Below are positions 19,605 through 37,343 of a stretch of DNA of 37,343 nt, one piece after another. Every line of letters begins with the position of its first letter. Position 1 is the stretch's first letter. The notes beneath the pieces were generated by a model, which was given only the letters and a program-made list of their open reading frames with translations, was not told where the DNA came from and did not search any database. The position numbers were made by a program, and so were the translations under genes. The stretch is taken from positions 1 to 37,343 of the forward strand of contig DATEYH010000138.1 in assembly GCA_035256305.1 (NCBI GenBank), read 5' to 3'. Source of the stretch: Candidatus Nanoarchaeia archaeon. GTDB taxonomy: Archaea > Nanobdellota > Nanobdellia > Woesearchaeales > SM23-78.

Positions 19605-19624
19605 ATTAATGTTTTTTCGTTTTT
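19605..19624 (-). promoter_or_regulatory. shared promoter module copy 4
   Basis: ATTAATGTTTTTTCGTTTTT; TATA-like box ends 26 nt upstream of ATG 19576. Confidence 0.6.
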
Positions 19625-19628
19625 ACTC

Positions 19629-20621: not shown

Positions 20622-20622
20622 A

Positions 20623-21039
20623 ATGGCGCTTACCTTCAGGTATAAAGGTGTTAAGAGACCGCATGGAGTAGTCAAAACTCCAAGCATACCAATCACTTTT
20701 AAAGGCTTAACAGAAACAATCGAAGTAATTGCCTTGCTGGATTCAGGAGCTGACCTTTCTGCCATATCAAAAGACTTTGCTGAACTATTAGGGCTTGAGT
20801 TGACAGGCAAAAAAGAGCCTGTAAGAGGAATAGGCGGAGAAGTAGACGCTGTTGAGACTAAGACATGGATTTCTTTGGGCAAGGACAGGGAAAAATATAA
20901 CTTCCTCATACCGGTAAAGGTGCTTTTAACCAAGGATGATTTTGGCATCATTCTCGAAAGAGCAGGTTTCTTTGACAAGTTCCTGATAACCTTTGATGAA
21001 AGTAATGAAAAGGTAGTTCTGAAAAGAAGACAAGCATAA
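20623..21039 (+). CDS. retropepsin-like (clan AA) aspartic protease
   Basis: ALLDSGADLSAI contains the D-S-G-A active-site motif; size (138 aa) fits a single-lobe retropepsin that would dimerise. Confidence 0.7.
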   Translation: MALTFRYKGVKRPHGVVKTPSIPITFKGLTETIEVIALLDSGADLSAISKDFAELLGLELTGKKEPVRGIGGEVDAVETKTWISLGKDREKYNFLIPVKVLLTKDDFGIILERAGFFDKFLITFDESNEKVVLKRRQA

Positions 21040-21147
21040 GCAGAACGAGTTTGATTCTTAGTAAGAATTAGCCTCAAACTCCAATTAATTTTCTCGTAAA
21101 GTTTATATATCTGTATTACTCTTCGCTTCGTAACGGGGGTGTTTTGT

Positions 21148-21864: not shown

Positions 21865-21942
21865 ATTTTTTTATTCTTTCTTTTTGCTAACATTTAAATA
21901 ATCAGAGCAATATTCTTTCTTTGCTTTTGCGAGGTGGTTTTT

Positions 21943-22152
21943 ATGGCAGCTAAGAAGGTTGTTAAGGAAGATAAGTGTTGCACAACAGGTGCTAGAATGC
22001 AGTGCGGCGGAGGCGCTGTTTACGGGCTTGGCTTTATTGGCGCAGCAATATATTACATCTCCACTGCCACTGGCTTCTGGATGGGAGTATTGGGCTTCTT
22101 GAAAGCGATTGTCTGGCCTGCCTTCCTGGTTTATCAGTTATTAGGCTTGTGA
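21943..22152 (+). CDS. small membrane protein with N-terminal CC..C motif
   Basis: MAAKKVVKEDKCCTTGARMQCGGG followed by two Gly/Ala-rich hydrophobic helices. Confidence 0.45.
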   Translation: MAAKKVVKEDKCCTTGARMQCGGGAVYGLGFIGAAIYYISTATGFWMGVLGFLKAIVWPAFLVYQLLGL

Positions 22153-22217
22153 GACTTCCGTAATCCTTCCGCCTTTTCATAACATTTAAATAGCAAGAAA
22201 ACTGCTTTTAACCTGAA

Positions 22218-22571
22218 ATGAGTTCAACCAAAGTGCAGGTTAAGAATTATCTTGGCAGCTCTTTTGTCACTCAGCACAGTGTTTACAAGATCTCTAAGGA
22301 CGGAAGGTTCGAGGGCAGGCCGAGCATTGAAGGAGCTGAGCTAGAGCTTATAGGAGGCCTTGAAAAAAAGTTTCGCGAAGCTGCTATTGAATACCTTAAC
22401 ACTTCAATGCCTGAGCTTAAGGAAAAACTTGACTTATTAATCAAGGAGAAAGGACAAAAGATTAAGCCAGGGCTTATAGTGGTGGCAAGCCTTACTTCTG
22501 AGTATGTTGAGAAGAAGCAAAGGCACGGGATTGTCACAAGCACTGTCAAGGATGTTTTTTATGTTAATTAG
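22218..22571 (+). CDS. hypothetical protein (117 aa)
   Basis: ORF only. Confidence 0.4.
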   Translation: MSSTKVQVKNYLGSSFVTQHSVYKISKDGRFEGRPSIEGAELELIGGLEKKFREAAIEYLNTSMPELKEKLDLLIKEKGQKIKPGLIVVASLTSEYVEKKQRHGIVTSTVKDVFYVN

Positions 22572-22836
22572 AAAGCTGGAGGCAAGGATAAACCTCAAAC
22601 TCCAATTAAAAAATATAACCAGCCAGGAAGAATAAACAAAAGCCAGTGGTACCATGCTGGAAAAGAACGCATAATCCTAGTCATGCTTAATAATCTGCAT
22701 ACTTAATGACCTGATGCCGGTTCCTCCTATGCATTTCCATTTTCCACCACCACTTATCCAGCCCGACATCACCCATTTTCATCACCTAACTTTTTCATCA
22801 CTTTCATACATATAATCTAATCTTGTTTTCCACATC

Positions 22837-22971
22837 TTAACTCACCTTAACATCTTTCTCAATCTTTCCGCTGCTATTCATCATCCTTGACCAAAAACTA
22901 TTGCAGACCTCCTCTCTATTAAAATAGGCCACTCCTAACTCAATTTCTCCTTGCTTCTTATCTTGTAACAT
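22837..22971 (-). CDS. micro-ORF (44 aa), first of three coupled micro-ORFs
   Basis: GAGGTGA 6 nt upstream of the ATG. Followed by a 17-codon ORF (22782-22835, AAGGTGA upstream) and a 31-codon ORF (22687-22782, TGATG stop/start overlap). Confidence 0.3.
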   Translation of the reverse strand: MLQDKKQGEIELGVAYFNREEVCNSFWSRMMNSSGKIEKDVKVS

Positions 22972-23007
22972 TTTCGTCACCTCTAATCACTCTAACTATT
23001 AATGGTT

Positions 23008-23031
23008 GGGGCAGGTTATTCTCTCTGCCCC
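23008..23031 (-). terminator. GC-rich hairpin (GGGGCAG-N10-CTGCCCC)
   Basis: 7-bp perfect stem, the only GC-rich hairpin in this AT-rich spacer, downstream of the zinc-ribbon ORF. Confidence 0.3.
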
Positions 23032-23104
23032 AAAATTTACTCAGTTCTAATCATTCAATCTCCTTCTATTCCTACCTCCTTTTCAAACAACGTCATTATA
23101 CGGG

Positions 23105-23230
23105 TCAAACAAAGTCCACGCACGGTCTTTCACAATAAGGGCATATGGGCGTAAGTCCAAGAATTTTTACCATACCTCCAATTTGCTTATTACAATGCTT
23201 ACAAATCATTGTCCTTGTTGTTTTAACCAT
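23105..23230 (-). CDS. zinc-ribbon mini-protein (41 aa, MVKTTRTMICKHCNKQIGGMVKILGLTPICPYCERPCVDFV)
   Basis: Two CxxC pairs; below the ORF-track cutoff. Confidence 0.4.
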   Translation of the reverse strand: MVKTTRTMICKHCNKQIGGMVKILGLTPICPYCERPCVDFV

Positions 23231-23389
23231 ATACTAACTTAGGATTAGCAAGTATAACTACCTGTGGTAGTAGAAATTATCTGAAAAGCCTTAAGGAGTA
23301 GTTATTTACCAAAAATCAAACAATACCTCTTAATTCAGTTTGAGGTTTTACTTCGCTTATTTGATTACAAAAAAAGCATACCTCGTTGT

Positions 23390-23612
23390 TTACAGCGAGG
23401 ATTGGTTTCCTTTTTTTGGATCAACAAAAGCTTTGCTTTTGAGCGCCAAAACAAAGTTTTGAGCGCAACAACCTCGCTTAATGCTTTTTTTGTACCAACA
23501 AAAGCTCTGCTTTTGAGTGCCAAAAAGCTTCGCTTTTTGAGCACAACATACCTTGCCCTTTAGGGCGAGGTTGTTGATTTTTGGAAATAATTCAGCCCGA
23601 AGGCCGAAATTA
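23390..23612 (-). repeat. cluster of four A/T-foot hairpin modules plus a 12-bp long-range inverted repeat and a UUCG-capped hairpin, in the 3' flank of the Lrp-like gene
   Basis: Units at 23424-23446, 23447-23466, 23499-23521 and 23521-23544 (minus-strand reading GCTCAAAAGC-loop-GCTTTTG-TTG). Inverted repeat 23466-23477 / 23565-23576. Hairpin 23586-23616. Confidence 0.7.
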
Positions 23613-24164
23613 TTTATCCAAGAAAAAATCATTTGATAAAGCTTCTTCAGGGTTAAGAATCGTGTTCAACAGGCCGATATGATTTGTTTTGATAATCCTA
23701 TCAACTGAAAAAGGGTAGACATTCACTATTTCAATCTCTTTTGAATATTTGCTTTGCAGCCTCATCAGGTACCTGTCCTTATCGTCAATATTCTTAAAGC
23801 CCATGACCAGCAAATGGGAGATTCTTGATTCAGGGACACGATACGCGATTATCACCTGCGGAATTTTTAGTATTTTTTCAGCGATCTCCTCCTCTGAATA
23901 CTTGTTCCAAATATACTGGGTAAACCTTACGCCTAAAACAACCAATGCCTCAATCCCAATTTTTTTATAATCAATGATAGGCATATACCCCCTTATTATC
24001 CCTACCTTCTCAAGCTTATGCCTGATCTTGAAGATTGCTTGCTGGGAGAGCCCCATCTTATGGGCGATTTCCAAATCAGGTATTTTGGCCTGCTCAATAA
24101 TCTTTTTCAGAACTTTTTGCTCGTTTCTTGTTAATTTAGGAAAGTTAACATCGGGCTTTTCCAT
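23610..24164 (-). CDS. Lrp/AsnC-like HTH transcriptional regulator
   Basis: N-terminal LTRNEQKVLKKIIEQAKIPDLEIAHKMGLSQQAIFKIRHKLEKVGIIRGY (winged-HTH AsnC type) plus a C-terminal alpha/beta domain. TTTATATA about 23 nt upstream of the ATG. Confidence 0.7.
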   Translation of the reverse strand: MEKPDVNFPKLTRNEQKVLKKIIEQAKIPDLEIAHKMGLSQQAIFKIRHKLEKVGIIRGYMPIIDYKKIGIEALVVLGVRFTQYIWNKYSEEEIAEKILKIPQVIIAYRVPESRISHLLVMGFKNIDDKDRYLMRLQSKYSKEIEIVNVYPFSVDRIIKTNHIGLLNTILNPEEALSNDFFLDK

Positions 24165-24230
24165 GCCAATAGTGAAGGCAGCATTCTATATAAATGTTCT
24201 TAATGCGGCAGTTAACCATAGAAGGAAAAG

Positions 24231-24359
24231 CGCCACGGCCCGGACTTTCAATGAAACTTAATCTCTCAGTTTCTTCTTTGAACCAGGAATTCCTTGCGGA
24301 ACCAGCTTTCCAGCTTAATGCCTCAAGGCTGGCGCACTACCAGATTATGCGACCGTGGC
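24231..24359 (-). tRNA. tRNA-Ser(UGA), class II, with two introns (14 nt at 37/38, 24308-24321; 32 nt in the T-loop at 59/60, 24245-24276)
   Basis: Hand fold: acceptor GCCACGG/CCGUGGC, discriminator G, D arm GCAU/GUGC, anticodon stem CCAGC/GCUGG, loop CUUGAG-A, long variable arm UUCC-GCAA-GGAA, T arm CCUGG/CCGGG with loop UUCAAA-U after splicing. Confidence 0.75.
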
Positions 24360-24540
24360 AAAAAAATTTTATTTTTTTGGACGTTCGCATACTCAAAAAT
24401 TGTAAATGAATTTTGTTGTACGCCTTTTTTAGGCGTGCTCAAAAATTGTGAAACAATTTTTGTTGTATGCGACCGTGGCACGAAGTGCTAGGTTGCATTC
24501 AGAAATTTGGAACAAATTTCTGTTATGCGACCGTGGCAAG
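24360..24540 (-). repeat. 5' leader of tRNA-Ser with two extra copies of tRNA nt 1-14 (GCCACGGUCGCAUA), one imperfect inverted copy and four hairpins
   Basis: Plus-strand TATGCGACCGTGGCA at 24346, 24466 and 24524. Hairpins CAGAAATTTG/CAAATTTCTG, CAAAAATTG/CAATTTTTG, ACGCC/GGCGT, CAAAAATT/AATTTTG. Inverted copy GGACGTTCGCATA at 24379-24391. Confidence 0.8.
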
Positions 24541-24594
24541 TCTGATAATATAACAGAACCATAACAACTTTTTAAATGTTTATCTTTTCTTGGC

Positions 24595-24927
24595 TCACCA
24601 CTCACCGACGCGGACATTAGCATATATCGAGCTTATTCCTTTCTTCCTGAAGGCTCTAAGCCTCGATATGCCGTCCTCAACCCTGAACTCCTCTCTTTGG
24701 GCGTGAAGCACAATCCTGATAGGGGGTATAGAAAACGGGTTTTTGCCTGCATCAAGCCAAGAAAGCACTTTTTTCTCCTTTGCATCCTGCCAGTCATTCG
24801 ACCTGTAAACTTTGTCCAAGTCATATTTTCCAAGATGATGTAAAATGTAGCTAACACTCATCTTAAAAGTGACAGACTTGTAGTTTCGCCTTAACCATGG
24901 CTTTCTCATGTAAGTGAATAATCCCAT
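24595..24927 (-). CDS. ParB N-terminal-like (sulfiredoxin-fold) domain protein
   Basis: IPPIRIVLHAQREEFRVEDGISRLRAFRKKGISSIYANV resembles the ParB-N nuclease/NTPase core (PPI..., DGxxR, G...I.A.V). Confidence 0.5.
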   Translation of the reverse strand: MGLFTYMRKPWLRRNYKSVTFKMSVSYILHHLGKYDLDKVYRSNDWQDAKEKKVLSWLDAGKNPFSIPPIRIVLHAQREEFRVEDGISRLRAFRKKGISSIYANVRVGEW

Positions 24928-24936
24928 TTTTAGAAC

Positions 24937-25443
24937 TCACACAGCATACTTGAACATGTTAAGGTAAGATTTTATCTCTTCCTGGACTTCCTGGGCGTCC
25001 TTGACAAGCTCTGCCTCGTACCTGTCAGTGTAAGACCTGTAAATGAACTTGTCAACAATAGCCCTGTAGAAGAAATAAGCAGGGCGGGATTCCCATCTTC
25101 CCTCATAATCAGTCACGAGTATGGCGTCAAAGGTGAAGTTCGCGCTGCCCTTGAGAAGCTTTTGCTTTACCCCTTGCAGCTCAACCTCAACCTCTTTAAG
25201 GTTTTCAAAAACAACAAAAACCCTCATCTCTAGCTTGTAATAATCACTAACCTTCTTATAAGGAATCAGCTCAAAAATTATCTTTTTGCCGTCCTCATAA
25301 ACCTCCTCGTAGTTCTTGTTCTCCCACATGTCATAGCCGTGCTCATTGAACCATTTAACAATAGTCCTGAACAAGTCTTTCAGATTAAACAAGCCCTCAA
25401 AGGAGACGAACTTGTCCTGGTAAACAATCTTCTTCTCAGCCAT
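24937..25443 (-). CDS. uncharacterised protein, paralog B
   Basis: 168 aa from ATG 25443 (GAGG about 8 nt upstream). Colinear similarity to the 25505-26029 product (F-x-G-L-[FY]...W..., K-x-V-x-[DE]-Y-Y, C-terminal acidic helix). Confidence 0.5.
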   Translation of the reverse strand: MAEKKIVYQDKFVSFEGLFNLKDLFRTIVKWFNEHGYDMWENKNYEEVYEDGKKIIFELIPYKKVSDYYKLEMRVFVVFENLKEVEVELQGVKQKLLKGSANFTFDAILVTDYEGRWESRPAYFFYRAIVDKFIYRSYTDRYEAELVKDAQEVQEEIKSYLNMFKYAV

Positions 25444-25504
25444 GGCAAACCTCTTTTTGTTGGAGTATTTATACTCCAATTCAAAAATCTTTAGTTTTTG
25501 TTAA

Positions 25505-26029
25505 CTAGCCTACTCCACTAGCATCTGCTTCTATTTTTAAAAACTTTTTTATTTCTGCCTCAAGCCTGTGCAAGTCCTTGTCAAAAGGGTCAATATAATT
25601 TATCTCCAGCTCATTCTTCAAGACGACCTTGCTAAGGAACATCTCCATGAGCTTGTGCACAGTATTATCTGGCTTGTAACGCTTCTGCCAGTCAGTTATG
25701 ACCGCGCCCTCTATCTTGATATCAATCCTTCCGTGCATCTTCATCACCTGGCGGCCATTCTCCACCACAGGCACCTCCCTTGACTCCCACAAATGATAAT
25801 GCACTTCCGCCCTGTACTGATAGTACTCTGTGACCTCCTTCTCCCCCCAGACATCCACCTCAAGCTCATTCCCAAGCGCAGTGTCTATCTTGTCCTTGTA
25901 GCGCTTCTCATGCACCCTGAACTGGCGCTTCAGCATCCAATTCCAGACAAAGCGATAAAGCCCTTCCCAGTCAAAATAGCCCTTGTAGCGAATCTTCAGT
26001 GGAGCTGGAAAAACATCCTTTTTATTCAT
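25505..26029 (-). CDS. uncharacterised protein, paralog A
   Basis: 174 aa; see paralog B. No signal peptide and no known motif. Confidence 0.5.
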   Translation of the reverse strand: MNKKDVFPAPLKIRYKGYFDWEGLYRFVWNWMLKRQFRVHEKRYKDKIDTALGNELEVDVWGEKEVTEYYQYRAEVHYHLWESREVPVVENGRQVMKMHGRIDIKIEGAVITDWQKRYKPDNTVHKLMEMFLSKVVLKNELEINYIDPFDKDLHRLEAEIKKFLKIEADASGVG

Positions 26030-26091
26030 AATAATATTCCTCTGCCAAGATGATTATTTAAAGGTTGCGCTTAAAACTTTCATAAGCTTGC

Positions 26092-27240
26092 TTATTCTGG
26101 CTTTGCCAGCTTCCATAACAAGTCAAAATACTTCCTGTAACCATCGGCTATTGCTTTCTTGTCTATTATTATTGTTGTAATTGGTTCTGTCCAGTCAATG
26201 ATTACAACCTTATCATCATATATCTCCATGTGCAAAGGGCTAAAGTATTCTTCAGGCAAAAACCTTATTTGTGCAAGCTCTGCTTTTCTTTTGATTTTTG
26301 AACCTTTTTTGAAAAGTAACCTCTCATGAATAGCTCTTTTATTCTCTATGTCTATTAGTTCGTCCAGTTCCCTGGTCAGTTTTTCCTGAAGCTTGGATTC
26401 TTCAAGCCCGAATGCAAGTATTTCCCTGTTTGTCTGCGCCATGTCCTTAAGAGCAAACCTTAGCCCATCCAGTCCTATGAATGTTTTTGTCTGCTGATTC
26501 CAGAGCAGCTCGAACTGTTTTAGGAAAGAAGCCGCGACTTCCTTGTTATCAATCACTATGAGCAATGGCTGTTTTTCTGTTTCAGAGGGAAAAATAAGAA
26601 CTCTGTCGTGGAAGATGTTTATTCCTGCAGGCATGGCTTGTTCATTCTGCATAAACCTTATCTCTGATAACGGATTATTTTCTGGAAGTGCTTGTAATTC
26701 TCCTCTTGCGCTTTCATTGAATAACTGCCTTGCCTCCACACCTCGCCTTGCTCTTTCAGCATTCCATTTCACAAAGAAGAGGTTGACTTTGTCTGAGCGC
26801 TGAGGAATTCCGTATACATAAAAGGTTTCGCCTTTCTTCATTAGCTTGAGGGCATCATAAAAAGCAGTTTCAATTCCTCGCATTCCCCTGTAAATCGTTG
26901 CTTCCTGCTTATACTTGGCCATCTCTTTTTTTAGCACTAGTTGAGGGAGCAGTTGCTCAACTTCTTTTTTCTGAGTTGCAAGTTCCTCTTCTCTTTCCTT
27001 AAGGTAGTCAAGTATTCTTTCAGGGGGTGCTGCTTCAAAGTATTTTGTGCTGCCTTTCATCACATGGCTCGCCATTCCTTTGTGTATTAGCCGGTCAAGT
27101 ATCTCATAAATTTTTGAGCTGGCTGCTCCTGATTTATCAACGATTGGGCCTGTTGTGGAGGAGCCTAGCTCCAGGAGTGCAAGGTAGACTTTTATCTCTG
27201 ATTTGGTCAGGCCTATTTGTTCTAGTATTTCTAGGTTCAT
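26092..27240 (-). CDS. TrmB-family transcriptional regulator
   Basis: From MNLEILEQIGLTKSEIKVYLALLELGSSTTGPIVDKSGAASSKIYEILDRLIHKGM (TrmB wHTH), then a coiled coil and a C-terminal domain. The tracked 45-codon N-terminal extension covers the promoter. Confidence 0.75.
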   Translation of the reverse strand: MNLEILEQIGLTKSEIKVYLALLELGSSTTGPIVDKSGAASSKIYEILDRLIHKGMASHVMKGSTKYFEAAPPERILDYLKEREEELATQKKEVEQLLPQLVLKKEMAKYKQEATIYRGMRGIETAFYDALKLMKKGETFYVYGIPQRSDKVNLFFVKWNAERARRGVEARQLFNESARGELQALPENNPLSEIRFMQNEQAMPAGINIFHDRVLIFPSETEKQPLLIVIDNKEVAASFLKQFELLWNQQTKTFIGLDGLRFALKDMAQTNREILAFGLEESKLQEKLTRELDELIDIENKRAIHERLLFKKGSKIKRKAELAQIRFLPEEYFSPLHMEIYDDKVVIIDWTEPITTIIIDKKAIADGYRKYFDLLWKLAKPE

Positions 27241-27285
27241 AGGATAATCATTATTTTGCTTATTTATATTCTTTTCTAATTTCTC

Positions 27286-27297
27286 CCCCTTAAGGGG
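27286..27297. promoter_or_regulatory. perfect 12-nt palindrome CCCCTTAAGGGG between divergent TATA boxes
   Basis: Lies between the TATA-like box of the TrmB gene (about 27260-27270) and GTTTATATAG (27306-27315) of the divergent 27366 gene. Confidence 0.35.
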
Positions 27298-27365
27298 TAG
27301 GTAATGTTTATATAGTATATCTACTAAATAGTGGTTACAAGATAACAGAAAGAGGTGAAACAAAA

Positions 27366-28022
27366 ATGAAAACATTCATGCAAAAAATCAGGGAGAAAGC
27401 AAAGAAGGCAATAGTGGGCGCTGCAATAGCAGGCACGCTGGCTATGCCAATGAAAGCCAAGGCTGATATGAACGGAAGCCTGGAAGCAATAGCAGGACCA
27501 ACTAAGCAGAGTACTTACCTAAGAGGTAACGCATTCTACCAACTGCCTGGAAAGATTGGAGGCTACACCTTCATAGAACTCTACCAAGGAGGCAATGGCT
27601 ACTTTGGAAAGAGCATGTTAGGAAGGGAAATAAAAGGAGGAATATTAGCAAAAGGAGAGATAGTTCACTGCAACGAGCCTTTCAGCGAAGCAAGGCTTGG
27701 TCTAGAAGCCAAGTTGCCAACTCCAAAAGGCACCACGCTCCAAGTAAAAGCTCTTCCTGTCTGCGTAGATAAAGACGGAAAAATCGTGCCCAGAAAAGTG
27801 ATGGTAGGCTACTTTGCAGATGTACAGCTAGGCAAAGGATGGAGCATAAGCAGCTTCGGAGATTTCAACGCCCTGCAAGGAGGGCAATGGGAGTACGGGG
27901 AAGTCAGCCTGAAAAAATACGTTTGGGACGGAGTGTCGGTGGCATATAACCCAGCGCTAAAGGCAAGTGGAAAGCTAGCGCCCATAATAGAGCACAGAGT
28001 GACCTTAGGCATAGACTTCTAG
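27366..28022 (+). CDS. secreted beta-rich protein with an outer-membrane-protein-like C-terminus
   Basis: Signal peptide ...AIAGTLAMPMKAKA, alternating hydrophobic beta-strand pattern, C-terminal ...RVTLGIDF. GAGGTGA 8 nt upstream of the ATG. Confidence 0.55.
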   Translation: MKTFMQKIREKAKKAIVGAAIAGTLAMPMKAKADMNGSLEAIAGPTKQSTYLRGNAFYQLPGKIGGYTFIELYQGGNGYFGKSMLGREIKGGILAKGEIVHCNEPFSEARLGLEAKLPTPKGTTLQVKALPVCVDKDGKIVPRKVMVGYFADVQLGKGWSISSFGDFNALQGGQWEYGEVSLKKYVWDGVSVAYNPALKASGKLAPIIEHRVTLGIDF

Positions 28023-28555
28023 TTAAGAATAAAACAAAAATTCTTTTTTATATTTAATTTTGAAACATAATTTCTTAGAAATAATAAATTAATGATAGCT
28101 GTTCATAGGAATCAACAACCAAGGTTGTTGAGCCAAAAATTCTGAGGAATTTTTGTGCATCATAGTCTTTGCTTCTCAGAGCCAATTCTCTGATTTGATT
28201 GTTAAATGAGAGATTGGACTTATTAGTGGCTGCATGCTGAGCACCTTGTTGCCTTGGTGCGTACACACCAGCTCTATCAACCCGATCTTCTATCGGCGTC
28301 CATGAGCGTCTCTTTTCAAGGATGGCTTCATACTTAGATGCTTTCAGTATTTATCCATGTAAAGCGTAGCTGCCCGGCCTACCCTGTCGGATAACCGGTC
28401 GACCAGAGGCTTCGGGCCCTCGTTCCTCTCGTACTAAAGGTCCCTTCCTTTCAGACACCCAACACTTCCAGTAGATATCAAACAAACTGCCTCGCAGCGT
28501 TCTGAACCCAGCTCACGATCCCTTTTGATAGGTGAACACCCTCACCCTTGGCCGC

Positions 28556-28588
28556 ATACAGTACCTTCTTACTTTCGCAAAAAGGTTA
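28556..28588 (-). other. 33-nt BHB-type mini-intron in 23S domain V (hairpin after GAUGUCGGCU)
   Basis: Outer helix GGCCG/CGGCC, central helix GCAG/CUGU, bulges AAU and AUG, inner helix ACCUU/AAGGU. Removal gives CCGUGCAGAAGCGGCC, the conserved archaeal LSU sequence as I recall it. Confidence 0.6.
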
Positions 28589-28852
28589 TTCTGCACGGCC
28601 AGGATAGGAAGAGCCGACATCTATGTAGCAAACCGCGCCGTCGATAGGAGCTCTCGGGCGCGACAACTCTGTTATCCCCGGAGTAACTTTTCGGTCGGTA
28701 CCGTCCCCCATTCAAGGAGGAACGGCAGTTCGTTAGGCCCAACTTTCGTTTCTGGTATTCTTCTTATTCAAATACCAGTCAGGCTGGCTTTTGCCCTTAC
28801 ACTCAACATCGGATTTCTGACCCGACTGAGCCAACCTTGGGGCGCCACTGAT

Positions 28853-28897
28853 ATAAAGCGAGCATAGACAAGCTTTATCAAGCAATCTATTGCTCAT
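28853..28897 (-). other. 45-nt BHB-type mini-intron in 23S domain V
   Basis: Textbook helix-bulge-helix-bulge-helix: GCCGCUGA/UCAGUGGC, central AAAG/CUUU, two AUA bulges, inner helix UGAGCA-UAGA/UCUAUGCUCG. Removal gives GCUGAAAAGAUAUCAGUGGC. Confidence 0.75.
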
Positions 28898-29233
28898 ATC
28901 TTTTCAGCGGCGTGCCACCCCAGCCAAACTGTCCACCTGCCGGTGTCCAAGTCACAAGGACTTGTGAGCAGCGTAAAACCAGATGAGTAGTGTTACATCG
29001 ACGTCTAAACCTGCACTTGCATGCAAGCCTCAAACAACTCCTACTTACTCTATACACCCGGTCTCACGTTGCAGCAACAGGCTACAGTAAAGTTTCACGG
29101 GGTCTTCGCTTCCCACTGGAAGTCTCTGGTCTTTGCACCAGAACAAAATTTTCAGAGGGTTCCGGTTGGGGACAGTGGAGATCTCGTTACGCCATTCATG
29201 CAGGCCGTCAATCAAACGGCAAGGCATTTCGCT

Positions 29234-30005
29234 CACATCTGTTACTTCCCTTAAAATTTAAGGTACTGACCTTCTCTTTAAGGCGGACAAGCATTTCTAC
29301 TAGTTGCTCAAAAATCTCAAATGATTTTTGGCAACCCCAAAACCACATGGTTTTGATGTCTCCTCACATCGCTATGAGGGTCGGACTATATCTTAACACT
29401 CATCAAAGAGTGTTTTTGGCGTATAGTCTCTGAGGATTCTAGACGCCTTATGACTTTTCGGTTCATCTCAGAAGCAAGTTCAGCTATTTTCTCTAAGCCT
29501 GCTCTTGACAAGTGCTCCTTTTTATTCATAATCCCTAATATTTGTGCAAAGAGTTCAAAGCTATTCTTCTTAGAAGTTTGAAGAGGATTTTCATTTATGA
29601 ACTGAACTATACGGTTCAGGTTGTCTAATCCTCTCACTCGGAACTCTTTCCTATCTCCGTTATTCACAGTTACGCTTCCAAAACCAAAATATGACTTGAT
29701 TCTGTGAAGTACTGCTTCATCGCGTTGATGTTGCACTATCCTTAATTCAGGGAGTACCTGCCATTTTAAGGTCATTTTCTCTAATCTATTAATAGACACA
29801 TGAAAACAACCTTCTCCATCAATGAATCCGACAATCCACTTAGCATCCAGTCTTTCCTGCTGATTATCTGCACCTATCACTTTTTCACCCTGACAACATA
29901 TAAACGTTTTAATTTAAATAGCTCACGTTAATATGTCCAGTGGTAGTGTAGGACTCTCAGACGTCCCAGCATATAGCCAGATTGTTTAAGGCAACTTCTG
30001 TGCTT
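29234..30005 (-). mobile_element. group I intron (772 nt) in 23S domain IV, carrying a LAGLIDADG homing endonuclease ORF
   Basis: Interrupts CUUAAGGU|AGCGAAAUGCC. The 5' exon ends in U, paired as U.G in a 7-bp P1 with internal guide GCCUUAA 13 nt into the intron. The intron ends in G. AAGAUAUAGUCCGACC (the classical S/P7 3' element) follows the ORF, with candidate P7 partner GGACAUAU. Confidence 0.75.
29386..29880 (-). CDS. LAGLIDADG homing endonuclease (single-motif type)
   Basis: KWIVGFIDGEGCFHVSI motif near the N-terminus; 164 aa; GTG start; sits inside the intron and its stop codon lies within the AAGAUAUAGUCC core element. Confidence 0.85.
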   Translation of the reverse strand: MIGADNQQERLDAKWIVGFIDGEGCFHVSINRLEKMTLKWQVLPELRIVQHQRDEAVLHRIKSYFGFGSVTVNNGDRKEFRVRGLDNLNRIVQFINENPLQTSKKNSFELFAQILGIMNKKEHLSRAGLEKIAELASEMNRKVIRRLESSETIRQKHSLMSVKI

Positions 30006-30837
30006 ACCTTAAGAGAGTTATAGTTACTCCCGCCGTTTACCTGTCCTTCGTTCCCTTGGATGGGATTTTCAGATACAGGCACTGGGCAGACGTCACCGAC
30101 TATTCTAGCCCTTACGGGTTGGCAGTCGGTTAAGTTTTTGTTAAACAGTCGGACCTCCTTTGTTACTGTGCCTTACACTCGCATTCTTATGAATACAAGT
30201 GTAGGGACCCCTTAGACCGAAGGCTTGGGGCTAATTTGCCGAATTCCCTCAACCAGATTGTCCCTTCTCGCCGTGGGCTTCTCACCCAGGGGCACCTGTG
30301 CCGGTGCTGGGTATAGACATAAAGGATTTTTCCCTGTTCCCTTTTCAAGGGCTCCGGGTATTAGCTGAACAATACTTAAGTACTGCTGTTCTAAGAGTTG
30401 ACCAGGTTCTCATCGTTACGATACTCCCCTGACCTGCCCTTATTAACAATCCCGACGGGGATTGTCAGCCTAACCAGAAGCGTCAGGAACAAGGCTTGCG
30501 TTACCGCACATACCAATATGGTACAGGAATATTAACCTGTTTCCCTTTCCTCTACTAGCTCAAGTTATGAGCTGAGTTAGGACTAACTTACCCTTGGCTG
30601 ATCTGCATTGCCAAGGAACCCTTGCCCTTTCAGCGACACTGATTCTCACAGTGCTAAGTTCTTACTATTACCAGGATTCTCATTCCTGCAAGATTGACCT
30701 CTCCTCTCGGAGAAGCTTCTGCTCTAGCAGGACGCCTACCTACCGCAACGCTTGCGCGTGCCAGCGGTCTCGGTGACTGATTTAGCCCCGTCCATCTTAG
30801 GCGCTCATAACCTCGAAGAGTAAGCTGTTACGCACTT

Positions 30838-30870
<33 letters not shown>

Positions 30871-32235
30871 CGCTGTCTTTGGTTATGAACAACCTTCACC
30901 CTTTCACACTTAACCAATGCTTAGGGACCTTAACCGCTGTCTGGGTTGTTCCCCTCTCGCGCATCACCCTTACGACGATGCGCCGTCTCCTGAGGTCTAC
31001 AGTGCATGGGACTTTGGAGTTGGACAAAGAACCGACCACTTTCGCGGCCTAAATCCTAAATCCGTAGCTCTACCTCCCAGGCAACCTCGCTCAGGGCTTG
31101 ACTGCAGCCAACTTCGGTAGGAACCAGCTATCGCCGAACTCGATTGGCTTTTTACCCCTACGCTCAAGTTAGAAGAACATTTGTACATAGAACCTCTGCA
31201 GGCCTCCACCCTTCTTTAGAAGGGCTTCACCTTACCCAAGTGTAGTTCGTCCGGCTTCGGGTCTGGTCCGAGTGACTAAAGGCGCTTTCACACCTCTCCC
31301 CTCGCATGCTGCGGGATATTGCTTTCGCTTTGGATGCCCATTGATTAATGGTTATCCTTGCCACTCAGACAAACTCCCTGGCTCGTTATTCTAAACGCAC
31401 GATACACAGCCGAAGCTGCGTATCCCGCTGTATCTACTAGGTTTCAAGTTCTATTTGACTCTCTGTCAAGAGTTCTTTTCAGCTTTCCCTCACGGTACTG
31501 GTTCGCTATCGGACTCAAAACGTGTTTAGGGTTAGGAGTTGATGCCTCCTAGCTTCGCACCTAGTATCCAGTAGGTGCTACTCAAGATACTGCCACGCCT
31601 CCCTGACTCCCTCTACGGGACTATCACCCTCTATGGTACTTCTTTCCAGAAGACTTTGAGTCATCAGGGTAAGGTCTAAAAGACAGTCTTACAAATCCAC
31701 ATCCCATCTCATTTTTCAATGAAAGGTTCAGATTGCCCTTTGCTGCTTTCGCTCTCTGCTAATAACAGCATCCTTAGTTTAGTTTCTCTTCCTGCAGGTA
31801 CTAAGACGTTTCAGTTCCCTGCGTATAGCTAGCCTTTCGGCTTCAAAGCGAAGTCGCATTCAGAAATCCCTGGTTCAACCCCTGCGTGCGGGTCGCCAAG
31901 GCTTTTCGTGGCTTGCCACGTCCTTCTTCGCCGTCTTGAGCCAAGCTATCCTCCTAGTAGAGTATTTTCTCTCAGAACTTAGCAATCATTTCAGAGACTT
32001 ATCTCTGTGTTGCAAAGACCAATAATTTCCTATGAACAGCCTTCATTAAACATGAGTAAATGAATATTGGTCGACATGAAAAAGCATGTCTTCTCGTGTT
32101 CTGAGCTTCTTCACCCAGCAAGTCTTAGTTGCCGAGCTGCTAATAAAAAATTGAATATGAAATGTAAGTGGACTCTGCGACAACAAAAATCGCGAAGCGA
32201 TTTTTGAGTCCTCGAGTCCATCTCACTTCGTTCGA

Positions 32236-32377
32236 TGGACTCTGCGGGAATTGCGTCCTCAGAGTTTATGTAATAAACTCTGATGTTGTATTCGCACCCG
32301 CGGCCCCCACCTCTCTCAAGCAAAAGCTCTTGCCTTTTGCATGCAAGGGTGGTGCTCTACTACTGAGCTAAGAGCCC
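32236..32377 (-). tRNA. tRNA-Ala(UGC) in the 16S-23S spacer, with two introns (29 nt at 37/38, 32313-32341; 41 nt in the T-loop at 59/60, 32250-32290)
   Basis: Acceptor GGGCUCU/AGAGUCC with the G3:U70 Ala identity pair, D arm GCUC/GAGC, anticodon stem CCACC/GGUGG, loop CUUGCA-A, variable GGGCC, T stem GCGGG/CCCGC. T-loop intron flanked by central helix UGCG/CGCA and bulges AAU/AUU. The mature T-loop UGCGAAU and D-loop AGUAGUA are atypical. Confidence 0.75.
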
Positions 32378-33224
32378 ATGCCGGGGGTATAATCCCCTTT
32401 TGCTCCTGTGAATAGCAAAAAAATAATGTGGTAGGAGAAGAACTAGCCTAACAAGATTCTAATATTTATATAAAAAATTATAGGAGGTGATCCCACCGCA
32501 GGTTCCCCTACGGTGACCTTGTGACGACTTAACCCATCTCACTGAACTCAGGTTCAACACAACCAAGAAAGCTGTGTTTCACCTAAACCCTGCTCGATTG
32601 GTTTGACGGGCGGTGTGTGCAAGAGACAGGGACATATTCACCGGACTATGCTAAAATCCGATTACTAGGGATTCCATCGTCACGAGGCTGAGTTACAAGC
32701 CTCGATCTGAACTAAGATATGGTTTAGAGGTTTAGCTCCCCCTTTCGGGGTGGCATCCCATTGTCCATACCATTGTTGCGCGCGTGTAGCCTAGAGCATT
32801 CGGAGCATACAGACCTACCGTAGCCTGCACCTTCCTCCCTGTTTCCAGGGCAGTCCCCTCAAAGTGCTCAATCCATCCGTGGATGTTGTTAGCAATAGAG
32901 GGTACAGGTCTCGCTCGTTGCCAGACTTAACTGGACGCTTCACAGCACGAGCTGGCGACGGCCATGCACTACCTCTCGGCTTGTCAGGTAATGTCTTCAG
33001 CATGACCTTCATTCTGCCGTCGGCTCTAGTGAGGTTCTCTGCGTTGAGTTAGATTGAACCGCACGCCGCACCCCTTGTGGTGTCTCCCCGCCAATTCCTT
33101 AAAGTTTCAGCCTTGCGACCGTACTTCCCTGGTGGCGAGCTTAACGACTTCTCTTCGACACTGCGCATCCTCGTGGGGTGCGCAATACCTTGCTCGCAGC
33201 GTTTACAGCTAGGACTACTCGGGT

Positions 33225-33368
33225 AATTAGCACCTTTATTTCCATAACGTATCAGAATTTGCAATGGATTGTAGTAATTTTTTCTTGGCAAAAACAAATC
33301 GTTCAGTGGGTTTTAACGAAGTTAAAATCCCACATTGCATTTTTTGGTACAGCTTTGATTAAAGGTGT
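33225..33368 (-). other. 144-nt BHB-type intron in 16S, inside the GGAUUAGAUACCC block
   Basis: Central helix UUAG/CUAA, bulges AUA and UUA, 8-bp inner helix CACCUUUA/UAAAGGUG. Cutting after the 2nd bulge nt restores GGAUUAGAU|ACCCGAGUAGUCC. Contains a 12-bp UUCG-capped hairpin. Confidence 0.8.
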
Positions 33369-33852
33369 ATCTAATCCGTTTTGCTCCCCTAGCTTTCGTT
33401 CCTCACAGTCGGACCCGTCCTGGCCAGATGCCTTCGCCATTGGTAGTCCTCCCTGGATTAACCCATTTTACCGGTACCCAAGGAATACTTCTGACCTCTT
33501 CCGGTCCCGAGTCTTGTAGTGTCCTCTGCACGCCGACAGGTTAAGCCTGCCGATTTCACAAAGGATTTTCAAGACCTGCTACGAACGCTTTAGACCCAAT
33601 AATCGTGATGACCACTTGGGGCGCTGGGGTTACCGCGGCGGCTGGCACCAGTCTTGCCCACCCCTTATTCGCCAAGCTTTTTACACATGGCAAAAGCCTA
33701 TCAATGATAAGCACTTGGGATCCCCTTCTCACACTTGCGTGCATTGGAAAGGTTTCGCGCCTGCTGCACCCCGTGGGGCTGGGACCAGTATCTCAGTGTC
33801 CCTCTCCGGGCTCCCACTCTCATGGCCCGTACGGATCCTAGGTTTGGTGGTC

Positions 33853-33896
33853 TTGTAAGCGCCAGCTTACAACCCAAAAGGGTTAGCTTTTGCGTG
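33853..33896 (-). other. 44-nt BHB-type mini-intron in 16S (helix equivalent to E. coli ~255-270)
   Basis: Outer helix UUGGCGGU/ACCACCAA, central helix GUAA/UUAC, bulges UGC and AAG. Removal gives UUGGCGGUGUAAUGGACCACCAA, colinear with the conserved UUGGUGGGGUAACGGCCCACCAA. Confidence 0.65.
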
Positions 33897-34391
33897 CATT
33901 ACACCGCCAACAGCCTAATCCGCCGCCAGTCCATCCTATGGCACGAGTTTAAGGAAGAGCCCATTCCAGGGCTTGTTCCCTATCAGGTATTACCCTCACT
34001 TTCGCGAAGCTATCCCCGACCATAGGGCAGGTTACCGACGTGTTACTGAGCCTTTCGCCTCCATTGCTGGATGACTTGCATGGCTTAATCGGATCCCAAT
34101 AGCAGCAATCTCCCGCAGGATCAACGGGAACTGATTATTTGATTATTCGGCTAAAACTTTAATGAAACTTTATTAGAATTCTGCTAAACAGGATTCTTTC
34201 TCCTACCAGTATACTTGAATAGCTAGTTCAAGCATGAAACAAACTTTTCGAGTTATGCTGATGCAAAAGATGCTTAATCCAGACTTTCGTCGAGATGTTT
34301 TTAATTCTGCATAACTATGGCGCTGATCGCTTGTAGAGAATCAGTGTTTAGATCCTCGCCTGAAAATGCGTGTTTTCAGAGAGTTATAGGG

Positions 34392-34400
34392 TATTTATAA
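34392..34400 (-). promoter_or_regulatory. candidate rRNA operon TATA box (minus strand TTATAAATA)
   Basis: Best TATA-like element upstream of the 16S 5' processing stem. Other AT-rich candidates lie at 34430-34440 and 34507-34518; the last probably serves the plus-strand patatin gene. Confidence 0.35.
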
Positions 34401-34542
34401 GCTTTTCGGTATTACAAAAATCTATGATTTTTGTATATAAAATTCATTTTTAGTGAATTTTGTTTTAATATTTTGCGGTTTCAACCAGTAAATTGGTTCA
34501 GCAGAAAAATTTATAACCCTGCACATTGAATGGAGTGTTGTT

Positions 34543-35337
34543 ATGTCAAGAATCGGCTTGGTGCTTAGCGGAGGAGGAGTGAACGGTCTGGCTCATATCG
34601 GCGCCTTGAAAGTGCTGGATAAGCTGGGTGTGAAATTCAGCGCAATAGCTGGCTGCAGCATGGGCAGCATTATCGGGGCATGTTACGCTGCTGGCAGAAC
34701 GCCTCAGGAGATAGAAGATTTTATTTTAAAGTACAAGCTGGTTCAGCTCCTGGATTTATCCATTTACGCTATTTCAAAGCTCGGCATTACAAAAACAAAC
34801 AAGCTGAAGAAGGCACTGGATGATTTCATGGGTGTGAACAAGTTTGAGGAGCTGAAAATTCCGATGTATATCAATGCGACTGACCTTAGCAAGGGCAAGG
34901 AAGTGGTTTTCTGCTCAGGAGAACTCTTCAAAGCCATACGTGCTAGCATTGCCATTCCAGGAGTGTTTGCTCCGCCCATCATCCACAAAGACTATTATGT
35001 CGACGGAGGCGTATTAGACAATGTCCCATTCTCCATCCTGCCGAGCCAGATAAAAAAGTACATTATTATCGACGCAGTGCCTTATGAGCCTCTGAAAACC
35101 AGTAAGAAGCCGAGCTTGGTAAAGCTCCTGGAGACCAGCGGCAGGGCAGCCATGGATGAGATTATAAGGTTACGCCTGAAAGACATTCCTGACAAGAATT
35201 ATGTGCTGGTTAAGCCGCGGATTCCGGAATACAAGTTTATAATTCACAGGGAGAAGTCTTTGGAAATAATAAGGAGCGGCGAGCTTGCTACGCAAAGGAA
35301 GATTCCGGAGATTAAGCATAAATTTAAAGTTAAATAA
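34543..35337 (+). CDS. patatin-like phospholipase
   Basis: GLVLSGGGVNGLAHIG (oxyanion GGG), GCSMGS (GxSxG nucleophile), DGGVLDNVP (catalytic Asp). Confidence 0.85.
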   Translation: MSRIGLVLSGGGVNGLAHIGALKVLDKLGVKFSAIAGCSMGSIIGACYAAGRTPQEIEDFILKYKLVQLLDLSIYAISKLGITKTNKLKKALDDFMGVNKFEELKIPMYINATDLSKGKEVVFCSGELFKAIRASIAIPGVFAPPIIHKDYYVDGGVLDNVPFSILPSQIKKYIIIDAVPYEPLKTSKKPSLVKLLETSGRAAMDEIIRLRLKDIPDKNYVLVKPRIPEYKFIIHREKSLEIIRSGELATQRKIPEIKHKFKVK

Positions 35338-35373
35338 TCGATTCTAATATTTAAATAAGAAATAAGAACAAGC

Positions 35374-35478
35374 CTACTGGCTAGCCTTCCTTCTCCTCTT
35401 TTCCCTCTTCATCCTCTTGCGCTGCCACTTCCAGCGCATCTGCCTTTTCTTTTTCCAGCGTCGGCTGCTTCTCTTCAT
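35374..35478 (-). CDS. rpl41e: 50S ribosomal protein L41e (34 aa)
   Basis: Untracked ORF MKRSSRRWKKKRQMRWKWQRKRMKREKRRRKASQ, extremely Arg/Lys-rich with the RWKKKR..MR..KRxRR pattern of L41e. Confidence 0.6.
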   Translation of the reverse strand: MKRSSRRWKKKRQMRWKWQRKRMKREKRRRKASQ

Positions 35479-35538
35479 GTTTAAACACTGAGTTTTATTT
35501 CGTTTTATAAATCTTTTTAAAAATTAAAAAATAATTCA

Positions 35539-35702
35539 TGCCCCGAACGGGATTTGAACCCGTGTCCTCGGATGTTTTCGGCGTGAGGCAAAAACCTCAG
35601 CAACTTTGTTGCTCGCCGCGAAAATCCGAGATGATTGTTCCCGCAAGGGAACCAAGGAAACAGCTTCCTTGTTTCCTTTGGACCGGACTACACCATCGGG
35701 GC
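35539..35702 (-). tRNA. tRNA-Glu(UUC) with two introns (about 43 nt in the D-loop, 35635-35677; 45 nt at 37/38, 35574-35618)
   Basis: Acceptor GCCCCGA/UCGGGGC, D region GUGUAGUCCGGUCCAA..UCAU typical of archaeal tRNA-Glu, anticodon stem UCGGA/UCCGA, loop UUUUCG-A, variable GGAC, T arm ACGGG-UUCAAAU-CCCGU. D-loop intron ends are ambiguous by about 2 nt. Confidence 0.8.
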
Positions 35703-35705
35703 AAG

Positions 35706-35906
35706 TGGGCCCACAGGGACTTTCACCAGATATTTGCACCTTCGGTAACGCGGAGGACTTAACGAAGTTAATGTCCTCCTTGCTTGCTTTTTACCAGATT
35801 TTTCGGCAAAAATCTGTTTTGAACCCCAGACCCCCGGCTGTCCTATTCAGTGTTCGAAGCACTGCCTTATAAGACCGGTGCTCCAGCCAGGCTAAGCTAT
35901 GGGCCC
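35706..35906 (-). tRNA. tRNA-Ile(UAU) with two introns (28 nt at 37/38, 35840-35867; 98 nt in the T-loop at 59/60, 35720-35817)
   Basis: Acceptor GGGCCCA/UGGGCCC, D arm GCUU/GAGC, anticodon stem CCGGU/GCCGG, loop CUUAUA-A, variable GGGUC, T stem UGGGG/CCCUG. T-loop intron has a canonical BHB: central UUCA/UGAA, bulges AAA and AGU, inner helix CAGAU/AUCUG. Only 3 nt separate it from tRNA-Glu. Confidence 0.85.
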
Positions 35907-35992
35907 AACTTATAATGTCCTGTGGTTATAGTATGTTTAAAAACTTTTTTGTTATAGAAACAGCCAGAAAACTTAGCCCTAGGAGAACAGGT

Positions 35993-37240
35993 TCAATCTT
36001 CTTCTTGCGTTTCTTTTTCTTCAACGACTTCTACCTTTGAACGCCAATTCCAGAACCCGTGGAAGTGATTCCTGTTAGTAAGGAATACGAGGAATACGCA
36101 GGCAAAGATGCTGAAGGCAATCGCTGAGAATACCAATGTTGAGAAATCTTCTGCATAAGGAAGGTTGTATTGGAATAGGAGCAGCACCAGCACTGCCGCA
36201 GCAGTTCCTTTAGGGTTCAATATCTCAACATAAACCCTGTCCTTGTCATTCACGATTTTGCCGATGCCGCTGAGCTTAACAGCAAGCGGCCTGATTAACA
36301 TTATGAGGATTGACAAGGCAATTCCTGCTAAGATGATGTTTATGTTCTCCAAGTTGATGCTTAGCCCAAGATAGACGAAAAAGAATGATTTTACAAAGAA
36401 AGATATTTCTGCATAGAAGAACTTTGCACCAGGAGCAATCTCTTCCCCGCCATCCTTGTGGAAAGCTGCAAAGATCTGCTTTGTATTCGCATATATGACT
36501 GCAAAGGCAAGGCAGGCAATAGCTCCGTTGGCTCCCATATACTCGACTCCGCTGTAGAGCAAAAGAAGCGCCCCTATCGTAGTCATGTAAGACTTGGCGA
36601 ATGTGTCCATCCTTTTTTGCAAAGCAGACCATAAGAACCCGCCAAGTATTCCAAGGAAGATTGATACGCTTAAGGTGTATAGGAGCTTCTGGCCGACCTC
36701 GGCGAAGCTTGTGCTCTGCATGAGGATTATGTTGATGACAGTAATAGCCCCTACTATTCCAAATACGTCGCTGATTGCTGACTCAAATGTTAATGTTGAA
36801 TAAGCCTCTTTGCTAATCTTAAGCCTTTTCATGATTGGAATGATTACTGTCTGGGCAGAATCAGTCAGTATAATCCCAAGCAGCAAGCCCTCTAGCAGCC
36901 CCCAGCCGAATAACTTCATGAAACCAACTGTCACAGCAACCGTTAGGATGAAATGAAGTATAGAAACCTCGCTTCCCTTTATCACTCCCTGGAAAAAGCT
37001 TTTAAGGTCAGTGTTGAGCAAGCCCTCGAAAAGGATGTAAATCAGTGCGAAAACAGTGAATACGGCGCCTATCTGCGTGAATGCTTCATAATCAGAAATA
37101 GGGTAGAACTTGCCAAGCACAATACCAAAAATCATAAGCCATATCGGATCGGGGATTCCTGTCTTCTCAAAAATCCACTCGCCTATAAAACCTAGCAGGA
37201 TGACTGCTCCTCCAATGGCAAAAACAACGAAAGGCTCCAT
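35993..37240 (-). CDS. monovalent cation/H+ antiporter (CPA-family Na+/H+ exchanger)
   Basis: 415 aa, about 11-12 hydrophobic helices, general Na_H_Exchanger pattern; acidic C-terminal tail. Confidence 0.7.
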   Translation of the reverse strand: MEPFVVFAIGGAVILLGFIGEWIFEKTGIPDPIWLMIFGIVLGKFYPISDYEAFTQIGAVFTVFALIYILFEGLLNTDLKSFFQGVIKGSEVSILHFILTVAVTVGFMKLFGWGLLEGLLLGIILTDSAQTVIIPIMKRLKISKEAYSTLTFESAISDVFGIVGAITVINIILMQSTSFAEVGQKLLYTLSVSIFLGILGGFLWSALQKRMDTFAKSYMTTIGALLLLYSGVEYMGANGAIACLAFAVIYANTKQIFAAFHKDGGEEIAPGAKFFYAEISFFVKSFFFVYLGLSINLENINIILAGIALSILIMLIRPLAVKLSGIGKIVNDKDRVYVEILNPKGTAAAVLVLLLFQYNLPYAEDFSTLVFSAIAFSIFACVFLVFLTNRNHFHGFWNWRSKVEVVEEKETQEED

Positions 37241-37343
37241 GATAATCTTCCATTACCTCTTTTTAATATTCCATTATGCCTTATAGTTAAAAATATTTTC
37301 TTTTTTTGTTAGTACCAGAAAAGAAAGAAGGATGCGCCGACCG

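Follow-up and report, generated by a model that had tools for sequence, protein, structure and literature searches.

Introns predicted between nucleotides 59 and 60 of the T-loop in tRNA genes of a Woesearchaeota-like archaeon

What becomes of tRNA genes that standard tools do not see? The question is raised by a stretch of 37,343 nucleotides from Candidatus Nanoarchaeia archaeon (contig DATEYH010000138.1 of assembly GCA_035256305.1; we refer to the whole of it as the window). In the raw window, no tRNA is found by ARAGORN, with or without its intron search, or by Rfam (gathering score, E<=10). Four minus-strand cloverleaves can be recognized by eye, those of tRNA-Ser, tRNA-Ala, tRNA-Ile and tRNA-Glu, and each is interrupted twice. 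We consider it very probable that these are functional archaeal tRNA genes, each with two introns in bulge-helix-bulge (BHB) motifs that the splicing endonuclease EndA would remove before the exons are ligated. In three of them, one of the two introns lies in the T-loop, between nucleotides (nt) 59 and 60. Below we give the evidence for these introns, consider whether they are related to one another, weigh the other explanations, and place the genes among known systems.

Four doubly interrupted tRNA genes

When the three T-loop insertions (24245-24276, 32250-32290 and 35720-35817) are deleted, ARAGORN calls tRNA-Ala(TGC), tRNA-Ile(TAT) and a class II tRNA, each with a further intron at 37/38. 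The program reads the class II tRNA as Thr(TGT) with a 6-nt intron, an assignment that we rejected on its long variable arm, its G73 and the Ser genes of two related contigs (L058 and L045, see below); with a 14-nt intron, GCATTAAGCTGGAA, removed, it is tRNA-Ser(UGA). In an excision screen, all BHB-like segments between 10 and 130 nt long, from anywhere in the window, were removed and ARAGORN was rerun. Among these 19,693 candidates, tRNAs arose at four loci only, Ser, Ala, Ile and Glu, the last of which requires that a D-loop intron and a 37/38 intron both be removed. Bacterial control loci (131 kb) gave only three poor matches, each needing a further 95-110-nt "intron" in the anticodon loop. 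The ARAGORN filter was added because a finder based on 59/60 geometry only gave false matches, about one per 25 kb; the screen as built would miss tRNAs with two or more non-canonical introns. Running ARAGORN on the contig was a check that the earlier note on this DNA had proposed, and its outcome is that the cloverleaves return once the proposed introns are deleted.

The genes and their introns, all on the minus strand, are as follows.

24359-24231, minus strand: tRNA-Ser(UGA), class II, with a 14-nt variable arm, G73 and no encoded CCA; exons 24359-24322, 24307-24277 and 24244-24231
24308-24321, minus strand: Ser 37/38 intron, 14 nt, GCATTAAGCTGGAA; relaxed BHB, central helix 3/4 paired (BHB scan)
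24276-24245, minus strand: Ser T-loop 59/60 intron, 32 nt, GAAG...TGAAAG; near-strict hBHBh' motif (h 5/5, H 4/4, h' 7/8)
32377-32236, minus strand: tRNA-Ala(UGC), in the 16S-23S spacer, with G3:U70, D-loop AGUAGUA and post-splicing T-loop UGCGAAU
32313-32341, minus strand: Ala 37/38 intron, 29 nt, from ARAGORN; BHB with h 5/5 and H 4/4
32290-32250, minus strand: Ala T-loop 59/60 intron, 41 nt; relaxed BHB, no h' beside the bulge
35906-35706, minus strand: tRNA-Ile(UAU), from ARAGORN after excision
35840-35867, minus strand: Ile 37/38 intron, 28 nt, from ARAGORN and the BHB scan
35817-35720, minus strand: Ile T-loop 59/60 intron, 98 nt, with several hairpins; h' offset by one unpaired nt
35702-35539, minus strand: tRNA-Glu(UUC), with no T-loop intron but with D-loop and 37/38 introns
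35681-35638, minus strand: Glu D-loop intron (about 20/21), 44 nt
35618-35574, minus strand: Glu 37/38 intron, 45 nt

The geometry of the three T-arms is uniform. In Ser, Ala and Ile alike, the T-stem is paired at 5/5 positions and nt 54-57 pair at 4/4 with the intron, their partners being the four intron nucleotides just before the last two. One 3-nt bulge is left on each strand, the 5' bulge made of nt 58, nt 59 and the first intron nucleotide, the 3' bulge of the last two intron nucleotides and nt 60. The earlier note had described just this arrangement, an insertion between nt 59 and 60 and a 4-bp central helix flanked by two 3-nt bulges, in these three genes, and had counted exactly two introns in each of the four tRNAs; both descriptions hold, the Glu pair being the D-loop and 37/38 introns. 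In Ala, a repeat of the flanking T means that the boundary could also be placed at 60/61. Minimum free energy folds of the isolated Ala and Ile T-arms recover the T-stem, the 3-nt bulge and the 4-bp helix, and the Ala 5' cut site falls in a larger internal loop. We class both motifs as relaxed because h' is absent beside the bulge in Ala and offset by one nucleotide in Ile. The 37/38 introns have a central helix paired at 4/4 in Ala, Ile and Glu and at 3/4 in Ser. Position 59/60 can be seen as the structural equivalent of 37/38, because the T-arm imitates the anticodon arm, with the T-stem serving as the outer helix.

The exons of each gene lie in colinear order at a single locus of 129-201 nt, and no split or permuted organization was found among the four. 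An Rfam search at E<=10 over 23500-37343 returned no intron-family match in the tRNA genes; its sole group I match lies in the large subunit (LSU) rRNA.

Established archaeal biology suggests how such transcripts could mature. EndA would cut once in each bulge, and an RtcB-type ligase would join the exons, restoring a T-loop of 7 nt, UUCAAAU in Ser and Ile and UGCGAAU in Ala. The excised intron would be released, probably as a circle. The central helix ties up nt 54-57, so that splicing would have to come before the T-loop/D-loop elbow can form and before any modification at 54/55. The relaxed Ala and Ile motifs would further imply an EndA of broad specificity.

Relatives and rival explanations

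We compared the window with fetched public contigs, labelled L001-L058, among them L036 from ENA and L001 from Logan; many of the clade tRNA-Ala genes came from a single metagenome scan with an Ala exon-1 pattern. The NhaP antiporter of L036 is 79% identical to that of the window, and its orthologous Ile and Glu genes carry introns at the same four positions. The Ile exons agree at 74/75 positions, the single change turning U49-G65 into C49-G65, whereas the Ile introns are 74% (37/38) and 52% (T-loop) identical. The T-loop intron sits at the same site with 111 nt in place of 98, and its h' retains the one-nucleotide offset while showing an A-U to U-A change. For Glu, the exons are identical at 68/75 positions, the changes in the acceptor and T stems being compensatory, and the introns at 71% and 58%.

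The Ala and Ser genes add relatives without the T-loop intron. An uninterrupted Ala T-arm, GCGGG-TGCGACT-CCCGC, is found in L040 (Ala CGC) and L052 (Ala GGC), for which the Rfam tRNA model gives 52 and 65 bits. In L042, L043/L044/L045, L048, L049 and L057, Ala has an insertion exactly between 59 and 60; the introns of L042-45, L048 and L057 differ in sequence from that of the window. The Ala gene in the rRNA spacer of L043/L044/L045 lacks a 37/38 intron and has an unrelated T-loop intron of 32 nt (48% identity), and the predicted mature Ala of the window equals that of L043 at 72/72 positions. The 37/38 intron of the window Ala, in turn, shares 93% identity with that of L049. L045 and the window are syntenic (LSU 94-97% identical), and the L045 Ser(UGA) orthologue (L045:2905-2809; 45 bits with the Rfam tRNA model) has an identical 14-nt 37/38 intron together with an intact T-arm, CTCGG-TTCAAAT-CCGGG. 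Intron-free T-loop counterparts match the predicted splice product exactly in Ser, and at all but position 59 in Ala. We regard the support from these relatives as decisive.

Over all fetched loci and the window, the excision screen yields ten distinct T-loop introns, seven of them outside the window. All ten sit on Woesearchaeota-like contigs, and they extend to tRNA-Gln(CUG) in L048 and to a minimal one of 19 nt in L047. The T-stem is paired at 5/5 and the central helix at 4/4 in every one. At the level of sequence, these comparisons show T-loop introns to be gained, lost and replaced fast among close relatives, while the exons stay nearly invariant.

It is less simple to say how the T-loop introns of different tRNAs relate to one another. 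The earlier note had taken the ending UGAAAG|U, which the Ser and Ile introns share, as a sign of homology. More generally, and on the model of the Thermoproteales, a single mobile intron could have been transposed between tRNA genes and given rise to all three T-loop introns. The introns occupy the same position, the AG|U of the 3' bulge recurs in Ser, Ile, the L036 Ile and the L048 Gln, and the presence of T-loop introns is polymorphic among close relatives, all of which would be expected of such an element. Moreover, a block of about 64 nt, including CAGGCGACTCCTAG..CCGGAGTCCCCT, is common to the T-loop introns of the L036 Ile (L036:1490-1555) and the L057 Ala(CGC) (L057:2555-2620), with a score of 60 where the best of 500 shuffles reached 25; part of it is also found in intergenic sequence after tRNA-Ala in L052 (about 470-510). 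The three introns of the window, however, do not behave as copies. The UGAA at the intron end is uninformative because it is the obligatory complement of U54-A57 (UUCA), leaving only the 2-nt AG free, and the Ala intron of the window ends in CGCAAU, as its UGCG loop requires. With the first nucleotide and the last six trimmed, the Ser/Ile, Ser/Ala and Ala/Ile pairs score 11-13 against shuffle means of 10-12, and 149-234 of 500 shuffles reach the observed score. The interiors thus score like shuffled sequence, and the proposed homology of the Ser and Ile introns is not borne out. Nor is there a paralogue of the Ser, Ala or Ile T-loop intron in the window or in the fetched sequence. Transposed copies of one intron are therefore an unlikely source of the three. 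What the presence and absence among relatives and the 64-nt block do imply is intron turnover, with some movement of intron sequence, in the clade. The long T-loop introns have the look of short BHB introns that have taken up nested hairpins.

A second alternative would do without splicing. The insertions would be small mobile hairpin elements, and the genes inactivated pseudogenes with functional copies elsewhere. Such elements could be at hand, as an A/T-rich palindrome, CAAAA-N5-17-TTTTGAG, is common in the window (11 copies versus 0.46 expected from shuffles) and hairpins resembling it lie inside the long introns; standard tRNA finders, moreover, reject the genes. Against this, all ten of the T-loop insertions have exact BHB geometry at one precise phosphodiester bond, the exons are 91-100% conserved relative to those of relatives, with compensatory stem changes, while the introns drift, the Ile T-loop intron has been kept at the same site in L036 despite the divergence of its NhaP, and tRNA-Ala is located in the rRNA operon spacer, as in relatives. 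We thus regard this explanation as very improbable. Finally, an assembly or chimera artefact, in which the extra T-loop sequence would be absent from the organism, has next to no probability: although the organism is uncultured and L036 ends in an Illumina adapter (AGATCGGAAGAGCACACGTCTGAACTCCAGT, L036:2424-2453, directly after the 16S gene start), the Ile/Glu locus is identical at every base in L001, an independent Logan assembly, and introns occupy the same site in seven further contigs, which come from different samples.

Several points weigh against functional, doubly spliced tRNA genes all the same. First, splicing is predicted here from DNA alone. Second, no EndA or RtcB gene was found in the window or in any fetched locus, EndA being sought among the open reading frames (ORFs) of the window that were scanned with Pfam and by tblastn with an M. 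jannaschii EndA sequence. Third, the Ala and Ile motifs have no proper h' helix beside the 5' bulge, and the central helix of the Ser 37/38 intron contains a U-U mismatch; a strict EndA might be unable to cut the Ala and Ile T-loop motifs or the Ser 37/38 motif. Finally, Ala has G55 in place of U55, which is near-universal in tRNA; G55 is conserved in relatives, including their intron-free genes.

Other features of the tRNA genes and their surroundings

The window and L036 (1381-1594) both encode tRNA-Ile with the anticodon UAU, whose usual archaeal counterpart is a CAU modified to agmatidine; among other archaea, Ile(UAU) is known from only a handful, N. equitans and K. cryptofilum among them. 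In the window, no more than about 3-4 nt (35702-35706) separate tRNA-Ile from tRNA-Glu, too short a gap for Glu to have its own promoter, and the pair is probably co-transcribed; the corresponding spacer of L036 is about 90 nt long and contains a tRNA-end module of the kind described below. Every tRNA-Ala isoacceptor of the clade (window, L040, L042, L043-45, L048, L049, L052 and L057) has the D-loop AGUAGUA, without G18-G19, and a T-loop UGCGA(A/C)U with G55, intron-free genes included. The same D-loop is paired with a T-loop UGCAAUC in the giant-virus contigs L029, L030, L032 and L033, and with a normal UUCAAAU T-loop in L047. Viral contigs scanned with tRNA exon patterns gave only unrelated giant-virus or phage tRNAs.

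Several tRNA genes of the clade are flanked by modules in which precisely the outermost 11-17 nt at one end of the tRNA (from +1, or to the discriminator) are repeated 45-120 nt away. The interior of a module consists of an imperfect inverted copy of the tRNA end, a CGAAG-rich loop and an A/T-rich hairpin (ACTCAAAAAT..ATTTTTGTTGT or CAGAAA..TTTCTG). As many as three tRNA-end copies stand in tandem, and they co-vary with the tRNA sequence between genomes.

24360-24539, minus strand: array upstream of tRNA-Ser, with copies of tRNA-Ser nt 1-15 at 24480-24466 and 24539-24524, imperfect inverted copies and A/T-rich hairpins
32235-32169, minus strand: module downstream of tRNA-Ala, in the order GAACGAAGUGA loop, inverted copy GATGGACTC, hairpin ACTCAAAAAT..ATTTTTGTTGT and tRNA 3'-end copy CGCAGAGTCCA (32179-32169)
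L036:1622-1684 and 1849-1917: modules on both sides of tRNA-Glu
L045:2906-3035: module array at tRNA-Ser
L058:9747-9794 and 9878-9936: modules at tRNA-Ser
L048:5838-5943: module at tRNA-Gln

The Ser array has a homologous array in L045 and a single unit in L058. The orthologous spacers of L043/L044/L045 lack the Ala module, and the L036 Glu modules have no equivalent at the window Glu. That the modules are themselves BHB introns was considered and rejected; the Ala module forms no BHB in any register, and those of L058 only artefacts of GC palindromes. TATA-like boxes, identified by eye, lie upstream of the outermost tRNA-end copy, which suggests that the modules are transcribed as leaders. 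Our best guess is that the modules are a small mobile or recombination-derived element.

The palindrome mentioned above, a REP-like hairpin, occurs in intergenic sequence, next to tRNA genes and within the LSU intron, with the following copies in the window.

331-351: one copy
14852-14876: one copy
23425-23541: four copies
24392-24462: two copies
25270-25288: one copy
29307-29330: one copy
32184-32208: one copy

The window is archaeal, with a minus-strand rRNA operon (small subunit 34131-32482, LSU 31977-28202), a GC content of about 42%, and genes that include Kae1, the ribosomal proteins P0, L1 and P1, and NFACT. Two of its genes have their best named relatives in metagenome-assembled genomes of Woesearchaeota/Nanoarchaeota.

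35993-37240: NhaP antiporter
23610-24164: Lrp-like regulator

Because of the archaeal markers and these matches, we take the host to be a DPANN archaeon (Woesearchaeota-like), in agreement with the earlier note, which had called the genome DPANN-like. GTDB relatives of NhaP at 45-48% identity (L002-L006) show no synteny and no detectable tRNAs.

About 16 kb of the window (8130-24230) is missing from the syntenic L045, where the L1 gene region abuts the 3' side of tRNA-Ser. The segment holds a DEAD helicase, Fic, Bro-N (phrog_15286), a CAP-domain protein and many ORFs without a family, and its GC fraction falls to 0.32. We rejected the idea of an integrated element bounded by tRNA ends, as the tRNA 3' end has no second copy and neither Pfam nor PHROGs showed an integrase; the segment is therefore a variable island of unclear origin.

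The LSU gene contains an insertion of 772 nt (30005-29234, minus strand) that begins after the U of AAGGU|A, as AAGGU|AGCGAAAU (E. coli position about 1930/1931), and ends in G. It carries a LAGLIDADG_1 ORF (29386-29880, E=1.6e-25), gives a sub-threshold Rfam group I match of 31 bits, and is absent from the LSU of L045. It agrees with the LSU/1931 group I introns known from earlier work on Woesearchaeota (PMC6125680).

Significance and place among known systems

In practical terms, the two introns per gene hide all tRNA genes of the 37-kb window from ARAGORN and from the Rfam tRNA model. Where tRNAs of Woesearchaeota/Nanobdellota are reported as missing, or split genes or loss are inferred, the surveys may simply have overlooked genes with several introns. 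Of 208 complete Nanobdellota genomes, only 96 yielded tRNAs for every one of the 20 amino acids in tRNAscan-SE, a result that the authors of that preprint discuss in terms of split genes or loss, not introns (10.64898/2026.05.13.725050). Incomplete tRNA sets in DPANN have also been taken as a sign of undetected disrupted genes (PMC5829648). The BHB models of tRNAscan-SE 2 were trained on Crenarchaeota/Euryarchaeota and Thaumarchaeota (PMC8450103), and models based on Crenarchaeota and Thaumarchaeota may have to be supplemented with DPANN examples. The close relatives, for their part, provide clean cases of T-loop intron gain, loss and replacement with invariant exons, and hence material for studying the mechanism by which BHB introns are gained.

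The window has 8 introns in 4 tRNA genes; the figure for Thermoproteales is 0.84 introns per tRNA gene (PMC8450103). It is tempting to combine the observations into a single claim, namely that this clade has the densest tRNA-intron load yet seen, that 59/60 is a hot spot of fast turnover, and that the modules at tRNA ends are an undescribed class of hairpin element. Taken jointly, we regard these three as doubtful. If it were true that one process, at the level of DNA or RNA, inserts both introns and modules at tRNA arms, it could explain BHB intron gain, and the same single insertion process could account for the full tRNA sets in so few of the Nanobdellota genomes.

How new, then, are these introns? 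The earlier note had set them against multiple and non-canonical tRNA introns documented mainly in Thermoproteales. Its placement of the host in DPANN stands, but neither the 59/60 site nor intron-rich DPANN tRNA genes are new, since both have been published. Archaeal BHB introns at non-canonical tRNA positions were reportedly described by Marck and Grosjean in 2003 and by Sugahara et al. in 2007-2009. The T-loop introns here are of a kind already known, and the phenomenon is established biology.

Position 59/60 is listed among the known non-canonical intron positions of archaeal tRNAs (PMC4090602). Our introns share with these the two 3-nt bulges and 4-bp helix, here in the T-arm, as well as the 59/60 site itself, the occurrence of more than one intron per gene and the lack of an encoded CCA. 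They differ in their host, which is a mesophile-like DPANN archaeon (Woesearchaeota-like) of about 42% GC and not a crenarchaeon, and in that 59/60 accounts for almost all of the non-canonical introns, in what is a small sample.

Within DPANN, the parallels are closer in taxonomy. Multiple-intron tRNAs have been recorded in Crenarchaeota, N. equitans, Korarchaeum and ARMAN, and non-canonical introns in N. equitans and ARMAN (PMC4033280). ARMAN-1/2 have an epsilon2 EndA (PMC3239211), and alpha4 EndAs with an "L3" insertion are found across DPANN, where they are tied to markedly increased disruption of tRNA genes (Kaneta et al., PMC5829648), in a survey that took in a Woesearchaeota and a Pacearchaeota genome. 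The window shares with ARMAN, N. equitans and the genomes of that survey its superphylum, multiple and non-canonical introns, and relaxed BHB motifs. It differs from them in that no split or permuted genes were found in it, and from the L3-loop lineages in that a link of its organism to an L3-loop enzyme is our inference.

Large-scale intron transposition has been described in Thermoproteales (Fujishima et al. 2010, as cited in PMC4033280 and PMC4090602). Rapid gain and loss of introns is common to that system and to ours, and there is one likeness across tRNA identities, between the L036 Ile and the L057 Ala. In contrast to that system, the introns of different tRNAs in the window are unrelated in sequence.

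T-arm introns are also known in the tRNA genes of Cyanidioschyzon merolae and of nucleomorphs (PMC3728597, PMC9602550). Hosts and enzymes there are eukaryotic, and the resemblance is by analogy only. Nevertheless, as in our system, tRNA-Ile(UAU) is among the genes concerned, introns lie in several arms, the T-arm included, and excision there depends on a BHB motif.

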